Shown here one piece after another: positions 3,401 to 64,000 of a stretch of 64,000 nt of DNA. The translations under genes and the position numbers were made by a program. The DNA lies in assembly GCA_963842845.1 (NCBI GenBank), contig CAWJHZ010000005.1, forward strand, positions 1,308 to 65,307. The letters run 5' to 3'. The DNA comes from an uncultured Chloroflexia bacterium (lineage in GTDB: Bacteria; Chloroflexota; Dehalococcoidia; DSTF01; JALHUB01). The notes under the pieces are model-generated. The model had not been told where the DNA came from. It did no database searches and saw only the letters and a list, made by a program, of their open reading frames with translations. Position 1 is the first letter of the stretch. Each line of letters opens with the position of its first letter.

Positions 3401-3531
3401 TCGAAGGTCAACATAACAATACCCTTCTTGCAACTCAACGGCTATCTCAGGGGTGATGAAGTGTGTTGAGCCATCGATATGAGAGCGGAAGGTGACGCCC
3501 TCATCGGTGACTTTCGAGAGGGCAGGCGCGG

Positions 3532-3726
3532 CTAAACACCTGGTAGCCGCCCGAATCGGTCAAAACGGCTCCGTCCCAGTCCATGAAGCGGTGTAAACCG
3601 CCCAGCTTTTTGATTACCTCTATTCCCAGGCCTGAGATATAGGTGATAGGTATTGTAACCTGTGTAAGCAAGTGTTATCCAAACATTCGGTAAAACTTGT
3701 ATATTCCAAGTATGAGTAGCCGACAT
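3532..3726 (-). CDS. hypothetical 64-aa protein, the first gene of the AT-rich element, with the conserved leader
   Basis: ATG preceded by TAAGGTGAAGTAAAATG, the same leader as the structural-operon genes. Its 3' part lies in DNA of intermediate GC content. Confidence 0.4.
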
Positions 3727-3867
3727 TTTACTTCACCTTAAAATTAGAATCAACTGCCGAGTTTATAAAATTATTGCTTCCTTTGTTTTTCAGCAGGGCA
3801 AAAACGACATCTAAATAATTTATATGAATTAAAGAAAGCTATGAATTTCCATTTATGCAACCCGAGT

Positions 3868-4230
3868 TTACACCTGAGTTTCACTTTCTTTCTCCGTTTC
3901 CTCTGGTTTTTCTTCTTTCAGAGTACACATAGAGAAACGAGTCGTGATATCGGAGATAGTGCCATGTACTTTCTCTTTCGCCTGAACCGCATCATCATAC
4001 AGGGATTCAAGCTCTGGTCGAGAGGGAAACATCTGTTTCAACTCATCAATTTTCCCTATCCCTTCTGTTAAAATATGTTCTTTCCGTATCAGGTTTTCCA
4101 TGACTTTTGGCATCTCGTTACAATTCATAGTTAAAGGGTCGCATTCTTCATCGTCTTTCGTTTTTGTCGTTTTTGGGATGTCATCCATATCTTCTGGTTC
4201 GTCCATGAATGACAGAATGACGAAAACCAT
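3868..4230 (-). CDS. hypothetical acidic protein, 120 aa
   Basis: ORF with AT-rich codon usage; Asp/Glu-rich. Confidence 0.45.
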   Translation of the reverse strand: MVFVILSFMDEPEDMDDIPKTTKTKDDEECDPLTMNCNEMPKVMENLIRKEHILTEGIGKIDELKQMFPSRPELESLYDDAVQAKEKVHGTISDITTRFSMCTLKEEKPEETEKESETQV

Positions 4231-4270
4231 AAATAAACCTTTCGCATTACTTAAAAGAGAGGTAAAAAAA

Positions 4271-4582
4271 ATGCCAACAATAACTGATACATATACAATA
4301 ACTATTCAGATAACCCCTCATGGGATTGCTGATGTCATCCAGCCGGTGACCGCCCCTGCTACTGTTGACCCGAACACTGCGTTTGACCTCGCCTATACGG
4401 TGAAAAACATGGGTACAGTAACAGACCTGATTTATGGTCGTCTGACTATCGGGGGTGTCGAAGTAACGGGTAGCTATTGGTCACAAAATCTTGCGCCAAA
4501 TACAACGGTCACAAAAACATTTACATTCCAAGCGGGGATAACGGCTCAGACAACAATAGTTATTGAAGTCGGACACATATAA
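4271..4582 (+). CDS. CARDB-like (cell-adhesion-related) single-domain protein
   Basis: AGAGAGG RBS 9 nt upstream of ATG 4271. Motif VTAPATVDPNTAFDLAYTVKNMGTVTD. Paralogous to the ORFs at 61510-62206 and 49198-49833. Confidence 0.55.
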   Translation: MPTITDTYTITIQITPHGIADVIQPVTAPATVDPNTAFDLAYTVKNMGTVTDLIYGRLTIGGVEVTGSYWSQNLAPNTTVTKTFTFQAGITAQTTIVIEVGHI

Positions 4583-5069
4583 TCTTTTTAAATCTAATAT
4601 GCAAATTACTTTAGAAAAAGAGAAAAAATGTTCTCGATGTAAAAAAACATTACCTGTTTCTAATTTTCATAAAGATAAACATAATAAAGACGGATTTTAT
4701 CTTTTTTGCAAAGAATGTCGAAAATTTTACAGTTTAAACTATTGGAATACAATGAAATATGATGCTGAATTTAGGAGAGAATCAATAAAGAGATGTAAAA
4801 AATATGATGATAACATAAAACTTGATGTTTTTAAACATTATTCAAATGGAAAAATAGAATGCGCTATCTGTAAATGTGATGATTATCGGGTTTTAAACAT
4901 CGACCATATAGGTGGAGGAGGATTAAAAGAAAGAAGAAAACAAAATCTAGATGGTGGTGCTGTTTTCTTTAGATGGCTGATAAAAAACAATTATCCTGAA
5001 GGGTATCGTGTGCTATGTCGTAATTGTAATTGGTTAGAACAGGGGGTAGCTAATTGGCGACTTTTTTAG
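4563..5069 (+). CDS. HNH endonuclease with an N-terminal Cys4 zinc finger
   Basis: CxxC...CxxC N-terminus; HNH core ECAICKC...LNIDHIGG...LCRNCN. The real start may be ATG 4599. Confidence 0.8.
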   Translation: MKSDTYNLFKSNMQITLEKEKKCSRCKKTLPVSNFHKDKHNKDGFYLFCKECRKFYSLNYWNTMKYDAEFRRESIKRCKKYDDNIKLDVFKHYSNGKIECAICKCDDYRVLNIDHIGGGGLKERRKQNLDGGAVFFRWLIKNNYPEGYRVLCRNCNWLEQGVANWRLF

Positions 5070-5127
5070 GCTCATTAGCGACTTCTCGTTGGCGAGTTTT
5101 TATGGAAGAATTTAGGAGGGATATGAA

Positions 5128-62206: not shown

Positions 62207-62314
62207 TGATTTCTATATCAAAACATGAGAATTTAAAACTTCTGTTCTTTTTTATGTCTTCATCATGGGAGTTCAATGGGTTTTTTCAAAAATTAGAACA
62301 GTGGTGAACATTGG

Positions 62315-62491
62315 TTAAGGTTTGTGTCGGGGCATATCGGGATGCCACATGCCTACAACGTAGAGGGTTTCTTTATGTTGGCATTTAGGGCAGACCCACA
62401 GGTGGTTGAGTTTGCCGACTTCTTCATGCAGCAGAGGGACATGGCAGAACGGACATGATTTCTCAGGGATACGGGGCTTAATGGCAGACAT
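62315..62491 (-). CDS. Cys4 zinc-ribbon mini-protein, 58 aa; not in the ORF track
   Basis: CPFC...CPKC. Confidence 0.35.
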   Translation of the reverse strand: MSAIKPRIPEKSCPFCHVPLLHEEVGKLNHLWVCPKCQHKETLYVVGMWHPDMPRHKP

Positions 62492-62500
62492 GCCGTAACC

Positions 62501-62653
62501 TCAGGATATAATCATCATGCCTGTGCCTATTAGTATCCGCATGATTCTCCCCATGTTGCTGACGGGTCGCTGGTCATTGGATGCTACAATGGATAACCCC
62601 GCCTCAAAAACAATGAATGCACCAGCGATTCCCCAATAGTTAATCTTCGCCAT
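62501..62653 (-). CDS. small TM mini-protein, 50 aa; not in the ORF track
   Basis: Two hydrophobic segments. Confidence 0.3.
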   Translation of the reverse strand: MAKINYWGIAGAFIVFEAGLSIVASNDQRPVSNMGRIMRILIGTGMMIIS

Positions 62654-62705
62654 GAATAGTATGAAACAACTACTGGTTAAAAAAAGTTATCTTATTTTTT
62701 TATAG

Positions 62706-63134
62706 TTACGCTGTTTCATTCTTTTTTAATGTCTCATTTTTTTCTCTCAGTTTTTTATTTTCTATTAAGAGAGCTTTCTTTTCACGTTCAAGCATTTGTT
62801 CCATTGTTTTTTGTGTTTTTATTAAATTGTTTTGTAAAAAAAACTGGTTTTCATATAGCGTCATGTTTTCTTCATGGAGAAGAAAGTGCTGTCTTTGGAG
62901 ATATTGACAATATGCCATGAGATAATTTATCATATCGTTTAGGCTCATAAGTCGTTTTTCTTTCATCGCTCGTATTGGTATCTCTTCCATCTTTCTGCTA
63001 AAACCATCTCGTGTTTTTTGCAATCGTTTAATCCGTCTTGCTCGTTCGGCAGTTGTTTCCTTAAAAACAGATGCGCTATGCATTGGTTTTCTTAATCCTT
63101 CTTTACTTTTTTTCTCCATAAATTCCACCACCAT
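62706..63134 (-). CDS. coiled-coil protein, 142 aa
   Basis: Heptad-rich basic protein. Confidence 0.4.
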   Translation of the reverse strand: MVVEFMEKKSKEGLRKPMHSASVFKETTAERARRIKRLQKTRDGFSRKMEEIPIRAMKEKRLMSLNDMINYLMAYCQYLQRQHFLLHEENMTLYENQFFLQNNLIKTQKTMEQMLEREKKALLIENKKLREKNETLKKNETA

Positions 63135-63991
63135 TTCTTTTTTTGAATAGGGAATAATTTATGTAGAGTAACCTGTATTTCTTCTTCTGATACTCCTTTT
63201 GATGATGCCATTTCTTTATATGCTGTTGTAATCCCTTTAATGAGCTTCATCACGTCTGGTAATTCGCAGTAGGTGAGCCATTGTGGTTTATAATCTTCTA
63301 CATGGGTTTCATTGTTTACTCTGTGGATGCTGAGGGCGAGAGCGGATTCCATGCCACGGTGTTCTTTGAGAAGCAGGATGTTGATATGTTGTGTGAATTT
63401 TATGAGAGGTAATGCTTTTATGTCAGTTTCTAATTCAATGGTATTTGATTTTTTGTACCCCAGCATTTTTTCTTCTGGTGTGAGAAATATCTTAGGCATA
63501 TTGAACTGATGGATGAGAAAGTAGAGCACAGCGCAGATGTGTTTACAAAGCATCGCACTGTTATCCCGATAATGGCTCATGATATGGTCTTGGCATGTGC
63601 AATCCACGTAGAGGTCAGCGATATATTCTTCCCGTTCATATAAACGCTGTGGTAATGTCTCAGGTAAATAATTTTTGATGATGATAGTATAGTTGTTTTT
63701 CTCTGATTGTACTACCGCATGGACATCTCCGCCTCGATGTGTCGTCACTGTATTCTTGATGATTGCTTTATTGCGATATAGCTCCAGCCCTTTTGTTACT
63801 CTACGGTCATCAATGAGTTTATGTACCTCCTGGAGGTCTCTTCGTTTCTGGTAGTGTGCTACATTTAAGATTGCCTTATACCAGTACCTGGTCGATATTT
63901 CGTGAGGTGATTGAAAGACTACGGGGATGACATTCTTTCTGCTCTGTGGTTTGGTTTCCTTTTTCGTCAAAATGATATACTGTTTTCTCAA
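63092..63991 (-). CDS. SWIM zinc-finger domain protein
   Basis: CxC-x(n)-CxH signature: DCTCQDHIMSHYRDNSAMLCKHICAV. Confidence 0.5.
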   Translation of the reverse strand: MRKQYIILTKKETKPQSRKNVIPVVFQSPHEISTRYWYKAILNVAHYQKRRDLQEVHKLIDDRRVTKGLELYRNKAIIKNTVTTHRGGDVHAVVQSEKNNYTIIIKNYLPETLPQRLYEREEYIADLYVDCTCQDHIMSHYRDNSAMLCKHICAVLYFLIHQFNMPKIFLTPEEKMLGYKKSNTIELETDIKALPLIKFTQHINILLLKEHRGMESALALSIHRVNNETHVEDYKPQWLTYCELPDVMKLIKGITTAYKEMASSKGVSEEEIQVTLHKLFPIQKKKWWWNLWRKKVKKD

Positions 63992-64000
63992 CCATTTTTA

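Follow-up and report, generated by a model that had tools for sequence, protein, structure and literature searches.

The DNA analysed here, which we call the window, is a stretch of 64,000 nucleotides (positions 1,308 to 65,307) of contig CAWJHZ010000005.1 from GenBank assembly GCA_963842845.1, deposited as an uncultured Chloroflexia bacterium; all coordinates below are those of the window unless a relative is named. Everything to the right of position 3,650 belongs to a virus-like element with genes on both strands (3650–64000), which is cut at its left end by a chimeric assembly junction and continues on the right beyond the window edge; the source contig is 73,459 bp long and the data end at base 64,000, so up to 9.5 kb of the contig lie outside the window. 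A first-pass annotation made from the sequence had placed a large, dense element at 3,500–64,000; its size and density stand, and its start should be moved to about 3,650. We called about 105 open reading frames (ORFs) in the element, and from 19.5 kb onward nearly all genes are on the minus strand. The element lies outside every catalogued virus or plasmid family with which it was compared. Its own family, of virus-like elements of about 70–90 kb, is widespread and unclassified.

The most conserved gene of this family (42908–43639, minus strand) encodes a 243-amino-acid (AA) protein, SJR-1, which is a candidate major capsid protein, and a second candidate capsid protein, SJR-2, is encoded at 41661–42350 (minus strand), where translation probably starts at 42335 to give 224 AAs (229 from the annotated start). 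AlphaFold2 models built from the family alignments have three N-terminal helices followed by a β-sandwich in SJR-1 (pLDDT 83, pTM 0.84) and a β-sandwich in SJR-2 (pLDDT 87, pTM 0.82). In Foldseek searches the best PDB matches of the SJR-1 model are to the birnavirus VP2 capsid protein (probability about 0.8, TM score 0.27), and a search of BFVD gave small virion proteins at a similar weak level; the best PDB matches of SJR-2 are enterovirus VP1 chains (probability 0.80–0.85, TM score 0.30–0.35), with the coat proteins of tomato aspermy virus and sobemoviruses lower in the list. PDB profile searches with the two protein families gave no meaningful match. The modelled fold of both proteins is thus a jelly roll. 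Both lack a signal peptide and transmembrane segments and are therefore predicted to be cytoplasmic, as capsid proteins are before assembly, and we infer that they are capsid or shell proteins. Wherever SJR-1 occurs, in the most distant relatives too, SJR-2 is found with it, and the two genes lie one gene apart; it is this pair, rather than a replication or partition module, that is the most persistent feature of the whole superfamily. Comparison of five core proteins by hhalign revealed no paralogy among them.

The SJR genes are embedded in a block of other conserved genes, all on the minus strand except one. To their left lie genes for a 113-AA protein (40813–41154, found at 29 loci) and a β-rich 147-AA protein (41214–41657, about 30 loci), and between them one for a 158-AA protein (42405–42881) that is present in one to three tandem copies in relatives. 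Beside SJR-1 a 46-AA ORF is encoded on the plus strand (44042–44182) and is conserved at 20–31 loci, on the opposite strand in most; it has no Pfam match and is possibly a regulator. It is followed by a gene for a conserved membrane protein with two predicted transmembrane helices (44197–44625; conservation, hydrophobicity) and by one for a conserved 278-AA protein with a C-terminal membrane anchor (45504–46340). The alignment of the latter has invariant His77-Gly78 and Ser109-Cys110 pairs, a dyad pattern that suggests a caspase- or gingipain-like cysteine protease, possibly one that functions in virion maturation; no match for this protein was obtained when all family members were scanned with Pfam or when the PDB was searched with a profile. 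Genes 46351–50253 (minus strand) encode membrane-anchored, Cys-rich proteins with CARDB-like and CarboxypepD_reg-like domains (identified by Pfam and by hydrophobic segments), which are candidate envelope or internal-membrane glycoproteins, and Pfam finds a DUF7107 domain in one membrane protein of the element. A CARDB-like β-sandwich protein encoded at 4100–4582 (plus) has paralogues at 61907–62206 (minus) and, among the CARDB-like proteins just named, at 48651–49187 (minus); hhalign relates it to them with probabilities of 99.2% and 94.4%. These paralogues are scattered across the element, and the 4100–4582 gene is on the opposite strand, near the truncated left end.

A second conserved region contains the replication gene. 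The 601-codon gene at 51669–53474 (minus strand) encodes a primase-like protein that is interrupted by a 477-AA intein with a LAGLIDADG homing endonuclease (51831–53261, minus; Intein_splicing E value 3e-16, LAGLIDADG_3 E value 6e-16); the exteins are encoded at 53262–53474 and 51669–51830. The intein extends from Ser72 (its Ser1) to His547-Asn548 and is followed by Ser549 (+1); it has a nucleophile at position 1, the terminal His-Asn followed by Ser and a Hint domain, and alleles without the intein exist. The joined exteins make up a 124-AA protein. Homologues that lack the intein, 122–134 AAs long, match this spliced product with up to 86% identity and 100% coverage, and since they are colinear with it they confirm the splice junction.

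When the spliced protein was compared by tblastn with 50,697 phage and archaeal virus records, matches were confined to the haloviruses PH1, SH1, HHIV-2 and HCIV-1 (E value 5e-4), and the alignment to their hypothetical proteins spans the splice junction. An hhalign comparison with the ORF41-type proteins gave a probability of 95.5% (E value 1.4e-8), and the protein is shown by these alignments to be a homologue of SH1 ORF41. The motifs RITxDLD, SSSGxGxH and RRxxGDD are invariant across the alignment with the SH1, HHIV-2 and HCIV-1 homologues, and their order and spacing are those of the archaeo-eukaryotic primases (AEPs); we take the DxD, SGxGxH and GDD elements to be AEP motifs I, II and III. 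The hhhDhD...sGxGxH...hDD pattern of the AEP/PrimPol proteins is thus shared by the element and the haloviruses, but unlike those proteins the one encoded here is only about 124 AAs long and has no match to a curated profile or to a PDB sequence. The protein would be expected to have primase activity. No helicase is fused to it or adjoins it. The intein is inserted directly after GDD (motif III), and a position just after motif III is a typical intein site. The haloviral genes in question are at 21085–21576 of SH1 (locus L067), 20755–21228 of HHIV-2 (L068) and 22088–22648 of HCIV-1 (L069); their records label them only "ORF 41", "putative protein 30" and "hypothetical protein", and the AEP motif pattern that they carry suggests that they have a replication function.

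The primase-like gene stands at one end of a conserved early or replication module (53483–60873, minus strand). The module contains genes for a 297-AA partner of the primase-like protein (53483–54376), a winged helix-turn-helix protein (55447–55800, weak match), a 99-AA protein (55797–56096), a 241-AA protein (57163–57888), a methyltransferase (57923–58645), a 132-AA protein (58976–59374), a glutaredoxin-like protein (59322–59546) and a 390-AA protein with coiled-coil and zinc-ribbon regions (59701–60873). Its order is that of relatives L039, L070 and L072, in which the zinc-ribbon, 132-AA, 241-AA, 99-AA, 297-AA and primase-like genes follow one another in this sequence. In L070 a free-standing LAGLIDADG gene (8979–10001) lies just upstream of an intein-free primase-like gene, and in L070 through L073 genes for IS200/IS605 TnpA and TnpB adjoin the primase-like gene.

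All ORFs were scanned against Pfam-A as concatenated sets, with the matches mapped back to single ORFs; the PHROGs scan covered the ORFs of 39–64 kb plus ten proteins of the left half; and all six frames of the 64 kb were searched for Walker-A motifs with the pattern [AG]xxxxGK[ST]. Neither Pfam-A (all ORFs, 3.5–64 kb) nor PHROGs (39–64 kb) recovered a terminase, portal, HK97 or double-jelly-roll capsid protein, tail tube or sheath, integrase, polymerase, helicase or partition protein. What Pfam-A does find are sugar-nucleotide enzymes, glycosyltransferases, methyltransferases, homing endonucleases, the intein, and β-helix, InlB-repeat, CARDB-like and glutaredoxin proteins. PHROGs found nothing structural or replicative in 39–64 kb, and its single match among the ten left-half proteins is that of the β-helix protein to "tail spike". 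Megablast of 39–64 kb and tblastn of the structural genes against the 50,697 phage records gave no match. There is no credible P-loop in six frames of the 64 kb, and none in about 400 kb to about 0.5 Mb of related loci, with one possible exception in the distant relative L074, whose truncated first ORF reads like the C-terminal half of an Mrp/NBP35 (ParA-family) ATPase (weak Pfam match, E value 0.07). The absence of P-loops is unusual for any 60-kb replicon.

These searches agree with the first-pass annotation that hallmark genes are unrecognizable across 3.5–64 kb, in that no library has a match for any; candidate capsid proteins and a replication protein do exist, and to this extent its statement that the element lacks hallmark genes goes too far. 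Most of the gene types it listed were recovered: homing endonucleases of the HNH (17397–18071), NUMOD3 (25784–26698) and LAGLIDADG (37571–38368) types and the intein within 51669–53474, all by Pfam; a glycan island, which Pfam locates at 19.5–39.1 kb; and a tRNA, identified by ARAGORN and Rfam as tRNA-Asn(GTT) at 30095–30169. Its ribbon-helix-helix regulators have no Pfam support, and its "disaggregatase-type" adhesins have just generic Beta_helix and DUF1565 matches.

Homologues of SJR-1 fall into 105 clusters at 90% identity, nearly all of them exactly 243 AAs long and none functionally named (mean column identity 63%); a profile search of 1.84 billion representative proteins gave 81 clusters at 50% identity. 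SJR-2 is represented by 69 clusters. The longest contigs that carry the family are 89,038, 84,389, 75,990, 75,714, 73,459, 68,013, 67,512 and 62,288 bp, and none is longer. Among the 185,579 GTDB species genomes the SJR-1 marker occurs in one, on a 3.3-kb contig in a Nanoarchaeota metagenome-assembled genome. The phage collection has no match for the family, including by tblastn with a distant member, nor did tblastn with a distant member find one among the 72,556 plasmid records of PLSDB; and the literature that we searched, with coverage that was not exhaustive, contained no description of it. Neither the window nor its related loci, about 0.5 Mb in all, contain a housekeeping Pfam family. 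A match to phrog_22680 (E value 1e-26) among the distant SJR-1 relatives proved to come from an unrelated repeat protein of 2,040 AAs and has no bearing on the family.

Conservation of the neighbourhood was judged from 59 fetched loci. The late block has the order protease-like gene, membrane protein gene, 46-AA ORF, SJR-1, the gene for the protein of about 158 AAs (one to three copies), SJR-2 (about 220 AAs), and the genes for the proteins of about 147 and 113 AAs; in relatives the 113-AA gene is followed by an Anp1-like gene, two GT4 glycosyltransferase genes and a triple methyltransferase gene, often then by homologues of the giant repeat protein. Thus across relatives whose proteins are 40–80% identical a replication block is followed by a structural block and then by glycosyltransferase and fibre genes. 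Independent JGI, ENA and Logan assemblies reproduce the element's gene order over tens of kb, and the shared backbone recurs with very different accessory content in genomes of 35–58% guanine plus cytosine (GC). The SJR-1 gene also precedes an SJR-2 homologue (hhalign 99–99.95%) in the very distant relatives L074, L075 (58% GC) and L076 (43% GC), where GT4, methyltransferase or phosphodiesterase genes lie near the pair. L074 is a 22.5-kb contig of 49% GC with a strongly acidic proteome, in which the core pair is found with GT4 and phosphodiesterase genes; a guess that its 273-AA protein is a PCNA was not supported. Two contigs, L055 (Ga0207997_1000013, 75,714 bp) and L060 (Ga0307928_10000038, 67,512 bp), are one element from different samples, with SJR-1 genes 29,808 and 29,832 bp, respectively, from the contig start; the matching offsets could mean that the genome is linear, with a fixed physical end, or that both assemblies broke at a common point. 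The suggestion of the first-pass annotation that this is potentially a new lineage is supported: the core proteins define a large family that is seen in metagenomes only and is absent from PHROGs and from the phage and plasmid collections.

About 20 kb of the element is a glycan-synthesis island broken up by selfish endonucleases (19557–39132), whose genes were identified by Pfam. From left to right it encodes a methyltransferase (19557–20249), a DegT aminotransferase (20467–21597), a cupin (22066–22410), a formyltransferase-like protein (23086–23586, weak match), a second methyltransferase (23583–24503), the NUMOD3 endonuclease (25784–26698), a UDP-glucose/GDP-mannose dehydrogenase (26847–28142), another methyltransferase (28301–28906), an NAD epimerase/dehydratase (28973–29959), a triple methyltransferase (32286–34082), two GT4 glycosyltransferases (33976–35082 and 36462–37598), the LAGLIDADG endonuclease (37571–38368) and an Anp1/GT2-like protein (38365–39132). 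In all there are five methyltransferase genes, one with three domains, and interspersed are three homing endonuclease genes and the tRNA gene. The GT4, triple methyltransferase and Anp1-like genes are kept beside the structural block in relatives, and since this part travels with the block throughout the family, glycosylation appears to be integral to the product of that block. From its ORF sizes 20–28 kb might have been taken for a phage head module, which is ruled out by the sugar-modifying enzymes that Pfam finds there. The tRNA-Asn (GTT) gene (30095–30169, minus strand; ARAGORN; Rfam 61.2 bits) has no encoded CCA end, and its features do not discriminate between domains and so give no clue to the host. 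In relative L004 an intein lies inside a GT4 glycosyltransferase (18354–20549, 731 AAs), and the homologue in L020 (14957–17335, 792 AAs) is similarly enlarged.

To the left of the island are several genes for large surface-type proteins and the HNH homing endonuclease gene (17397–18071, plus strand; Pfam HNH E value 2.2e-6). The product of 8361–9431 (minus) is a surface or adhesion protein in which Pfam finds a divergent InlB B-repeat domain (Flg_new_2, E value 1.6e-16), and 9334–10545 (minus) encodes a right-handed β-helix protein that is tailspike- or depolymerase-like (Beta_helix E value 7e-9; PHROG 2234 "tail spike" E value 8e-8) and is a candidate receptor-binding or glycan-degrading protein. 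Next is the gene for a 1,934-AA protein (11339–17143, minus) that consists almost wholly of V/G/S-rich "xVxVSG"-type repeats, a candidate fibre or adhesin. Its repeat region (11687–16500) includes tandem units that are 98–100% identical, of 213 nt (3.4 copies) and 654 nt (3 copies), copy numbers that are unreliable in a short-read assembly. The C-terminal domain of the protein resembles a 141-AA protein encoded at 39182–39607, and its homologues adjoin the structural block in relatives. The plus strand at this gene has extreme skews (GC skew −0.34, AT skew +0.48).

The GGTGA ribosome-binding sites and archaeal-style boxes of the first-pass annotation were both found. GGTGA precedes 12 of 93 genes where 1.7 would be expected, an enrichment of about 7-fold, and in most of the related loci examined a TATA-like box lies about 45 nt upstream of the conserved late gene SJR-1, which also has an extended ribosome-binding site GAGGTGAAGT(A/G)A; a GACAC-type motif is often found just 5' of the box. 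The conservation of this ribosome-binding site (e.g., window 43640–43700) extends past the usual core, and the AGT(A/G)A extension mismatches the canonical 16S 3' end; the host may have an unusual anti-Shine-Dalgarno tail, or the extension may be a second signal. In our judgement the spacing of the TATA-like box suits archaeal promoters better than sigma-70 promoters. Haloarchaeal viruses are the only viruses with homologues of any gene of the element, and a halophile-type relative such as L074 (only 49% GC) would suit Nanohaloarchaeota or Haloquadratum. Further indirect pointers to the host are the DUF7107 domain of one membrane protein and the single bin assignment to Nanoarchaeota. The host is likely archaeal; that it is a DPANN archaeon is only a lead.

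The left end of the window (1–3650) is an assembly chimera of three pieces, which the first-pass annotation overlooked and which is evident from composition, translation and Pfam. GC content is 70–78% in 1–3,385, about 52% in about 3,385–3,650 and mostly 30–43% beyond. The first piece carries an MMPL-family transporter ORF (2117–3433, minus; Pfam MMPL E value 5.9e-33) of actinobacterial type, and its sole database echo is a weak match to a record from the actinomycete Embleya. The second is a fragment of a queuine tRNA-ribosyltransferase (TGT) gene (3385–3650, minus) in two reading frames, whose Pfam TGT matches (E values 5e-11 and 1.5e-7) cover the neighbouring profile positions 57–89 and 91–123, so that it is frameshifted. 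The third is the element, cut inside a gene (3532–3726, minus) that retains a family-typical AAGGTGAAGTAAAATG start region and is broken off by the junction after about 30 codons. Since three unrelated pieces are joined here, this is an assembly chimera and no integration site, and users of the contig should trim window positions 1–3650.

Within the element GC content is 30–43% except in the repeat gene at 11.3–17.1 kb (up to about 50%), and the lowest-GC part is 4000–8000 (22–33%), which includes the gene for a membrane protein with five predicted helices (6735–7403) and, at 7404–7994, a 591-nt gap without ORFs that is followed by a gene for a DUF1508 protein (7995–8273). Origin-like repeats were sought in the AT-rich gaps at 6.5–8.4 kb and 50.2–51.7 kb, and there were no iterons or anything else of note. 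A 43-nt direct repeat (23028–23070 and 40764–40806, 95% identical and 17.7 kb apart) encodes a shared N-terminal peptide ..EARGTGRKDYSM.. in the otherwise different proteins of 22769–23101 in the glycan island and 40373–40816 in the structural block; recombination may have left it as a scar, or the two proteins may have an N-terminal tag in common. In addition, the 5' end of the DegT gene (MSYKIRQVEP; 21566–21600) is copied 124 nt upstream (MKYKIRQVEP; 21690–21724), where it opens a short ORF, and this looks like the remnant of an insertion or excision event.

Among sequenced viruses, only the Haloarcula viruses SH1, PH1, HHIV-2 and HCIV-1 have homologues of the spliced primase-like protein (SH1 ORF41, HHIV-2 ORF30 and HCIV-1 ORF36). 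The records place this group in the Sphaerolipoviridae, genus Alphasphaerolipovirus, and more recent literature in the Simuloviridae, a capsid lineage with two vertical single jelly rolls. SH1-type viruses have archaeal hosts and, like the element, encode two separate jelly-roll proteins (about 185 and 232 AAs) from genes that lie close together, as well as membrane proteins and large spike proteins; unlike it, they have a packaging ATPase ("terminase large subunit / putative ATPase"), where the element has no P-loop in the window, and genomes of 28–31 kb without a glycan-synthesis island, compared to about 70–90 kb in the element's family. The two-single-jelly-roll arrangement of the Halopanivirales may be paralleled here by two co-conserved jelly-roll proteins encoded one gene apart, with weak fold matches (TM score about 0.3) and a putative capsid role, and there is no FtsK/HerA-type packaging ATPase in the window or within 10 kb of the core genes of relatives. 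When the structural proteins, the 297-AA partner and others were compared by hhalign with SH1 VP4, VP7, VP12, VP10, VP9, VP3, VP5, ORF19–22 and ORF42–44, none was homologous, and the VP4 and VP7 structures are not among the top 50 Foldseek PDB matches listed for SJR-1 and SJR-2. The PRD1/STIV-type double-jelly-roll lineage does not fit, as each modelled protein has one sandwich and there is no ATPase.

Virus-encoded glycan synthesis is known from the chloroviruses and mimiviruses, which use sugar-nucleotide enzymes and glycosyltransferases of their own to glycosylate capsid or fibril proteins. The element resembles them in its dehydrogenase/dehydratase, DegT-type aminotransferase, methyltransferases and glycosyltransferases, and this is a functional analogy only; they differ in being giant viruses of eukaryotes with double-jelly-roll capsids and packaging ATPases. 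Nanohaloarchaeal icosahedral viruses are also known from metagenomes, are assigned to DPANN hosts and have two single-jelly-roll capsid proteins, in two cases variants "not recognizably similar" to known ones, so that such proteins can be beyond recognition by sequence, yet these viruses encode FtsK-like ATPases (bioRxiv 10.1101/2025.02.15.638363). The halophile-derived look of the element's distant relative L074 is a further likeness; the nanohaloarchaeal viruses, which we compared with the element by description, differ in their size (about 18 kb) and in those ATPases. Borgs, the giant extrachromosomal elements of Methanoperedens, are likewise unclassifiable archaeal elements without canonical virus or plasmid hallmarks, and they too have glycoconjugate clusters and "putative capsid proteins" predicted from structure (bioRxiv 10.1101/2024.11.05.622173). 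Their genomes are linear and megabase-sized, end in long inverted repeats, are pervaded by tandem repeats and carry metabolic genes, whereas contigs of the element's family do not exceed 89 kb, their tandem repeats are confined to the fibre gene, and their metabolic genes are limited to sugar modification.

We consider it more likely than not that 3,650–64,000 belongs to a new archaeal virus family with its own glycan synthesis. The window would hold at least 60 kb of a genome of about 70–76 kb, that of an uncultivated virus or virus-like extrachromosomal element whose host is most likely archaeal. Its early module would act around the small primase-like protein which, freed from the 477-AA intein, may prime or initiate replication; the host replisome would do the rest, since no polymerase or helicase is encoded in the window. 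A late operon with TATA-like promoters and strong GGTGAAGT ribosome-binding sites would express the two putative jelly-roll capsid or shell proteins together with the small β-proteins, the putative cysteine protease and the membrane-anchored Cys-rich and CARDB-like proteins, a set that suggests a membrane-containing virion. The GT4 proteins, triple methyltransferase, DegT protein, UDP-sugar dehydrogenase and epimerase would make and transfer a methylated amino-sugar glycan; these enzymes and their linkage are seen directly, and the glycan's target could be the virion proteins or the host surface. The 1,934-AA repeat fibre, the tailspike-like β-helix protein and the InlB-repeat protein may recognize the host, and the HNH, NUMOD3 and LAGLIDADG endonucleases and the intein are selfish passengers. 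We favour a virus because the core is a cytoplasmic jelly-roll pair with late-type signals, the synteny is modular and runs in one direction, and the replicon size is discrete, and also because of the tailspike-like protein and fibre and the link to SH1-type viruses.

Several observations weigh against this conclusion. Neither the 60 kb nor the sequence up to 10 kb from the core genes of relatives encodes a packaging ATPase or any other P-loop protein, and we know of no established jelly-roll lineage of double-stranded DNA viruses that lacks a packaging ATPase; up to 9.5 kb of the source contig lie outside the window, as does any sequence lost at the chimeric junction. The fold matches are weak (Foldseek E values 5e-3 to 5e-2, TM scores 0.27–0.35), non-viral jelly rolls (CBM35, the furin P-domain and nucleoplasmin) appear in the same Foldseek lists, and hhalign comparison of the SJR proteins with the VP4 and VP7 alignments of SH1, HHIV-2 and HCIV-1 gave probabilities below 2%. 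The primase-like assignment is made from the motifs, with Pfam (E values up to 10) and PDB sequence searches empty. PHROGs has no matching family, and IMG/VR pattern scans for the main family, for the halophile-type member and for its subgroup gave no family member. What is known of the element comes from sequence and predicted structures.

The choices offered by the first-pass annotation were an archaeal virus or plasmid, a jumbo phage, or a chromosomal surface-glycosylation region, and the evidence favours the first of these and disfavours the other two. Of the findings it had named as decisive, housekeeping matches, the sign of a chromosome, are lacking among the Pfam results for the unknown ORFs, and capsid or terminase matches, the sign of a virus, are lacking among the profile results and present as weak structural matches to viral capsid proteins. 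A non-viral extrachromosomal element of an anaerobic archaeon, plasmid-like or a small relation of the Borgs, that remodels the host surface and uses the SJR pair as lectins or envelope components is unlikely, although it is the main rival: it would account for the lack of a packaging ATPase or any other recognized virion gene, for the roughly one third of the window given to glycan synthesis and surface-type proteins, and for the family's failure to turn up in the IMG/VR scans, and jelly rolls are common in carbohydrate-binding modules, which appear in the same Foldseek lists. A precedent is provided by the Borgs, still unclassified, in which glycoconjugate clusters are found together with "putative capsid proteins" (bioRxiv 10.1101/2024.11.05.622173). 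Against it, Pfam families for Rep, ParA/ParB, type IV secretion ATPases and relaxases are absent from the window, as is any P-loop protein; superfamily-wide conservation falls on the structural pair and not on the replication module; the pair, without signal peptides or transmembrane segments, should be cytoplasmic; viruses typically have such strong late-type expression signals and such modular synteny in one direction; and the distant member matched none of the 72,556 plasmid records.

A genomic island for surface glycosylation in the chromosome of an AT-rich DPANN archaeon or candidate phyla radiation (CPR) bacterium would suit the glycan genes, adhesins, tRNA and homing endonucleases, and one homologue is on a contig binned into a Nanoarchaeota genome. 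That contig is just 3.3 kb long, however, and is the only occurrence in 185,579 species genomes; housekeeping genes are lacking both in the 60 kb and in the related loci (about 0.5 Mb), dozens of sampled assemblies include no carrying contig above 89 kb, the same backbone recurs with very different accessory genes at 35–58% GC, and the sole "flank" in the window is an obvious chimera, all of which makes this very unlikely. Less credible again is a diverged tailed phage of the jumbo type, or a tailed archaeal virus, with hallmarks too divergent to detect. The tailspike-like β-helix protein would fit it, as would the long repeat fibre, tRNA, intein and homing endonucleases that are common in large tailed viruses, but the window is devoid of Walker-A motifs, which terminase large subunits are not known to lack. 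No terminase, HK97 capsid or portal match was obtained, no protein of portal or capsid size has a PHROG or Pfam signal, tape-measure and tail-tube candidates are lacking, the two best-conserved proteins are modelled as jelly rolls rather than HK97 folds, and the genome is about 70–90 kb compared to more than 200 kb. Finally, the joining of three unrelated pieces in the first 3.65 kb might raise the suspicion that the entire 60 kb is a mosaic of unrelated fragments, a prospect that we regard as negligible, given that independent JGI, ENA and Logan assemblies repeat the gene order over tens of kb, that paralogues and shared motifs tie the left part (4–19 kb) to the right, and that the sequence beyond 3,650 is uniform in composition and in its ribosome-binding signals.

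Little is known of the viruses of archaea in anoxic sediments, groundwater and stratified lakes, and pipelines recover only those with genes that look like catalogued hallmarks; the present family escapes standard virus-finding tools, since no catalogued family matches its likely capsid and replication genes. A family of more than 100 clusters, with near-genome-length contigs in many public metagenomes, has stayed unclassified. The homology of the primase-like protein gives a plausible function to ORF41 of the haloviruses. If the SJR proteins are capsid proteins, they would provide a new marker pair with which to mine the group, would widen the known range of jelly-roll virus architectures, possibly to one without a canonical packaging ATPase, and would mean that virus-encoded glycosylation on the scale of the giant eukaryotic viruses occurs in an archaeal-type element of 70–90 kb. 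A bolder possibility, which we put forward tentatively and think rather doubtful, is that these elements form a high-rank group of archaeal (possibly DPANN) viruses with two unrelated jelly-roll shell proteins, no packaging ATPase of the FtsK/HerA or terminase type, genomes of up to about 90 kb and their own virion-glycosylation pathway. If so, they would be the largest non-tailed archaeal viruses, and the reach of the superfamily to halophile elements of about 22 kb would imply an old lineage and not a recent oddity.

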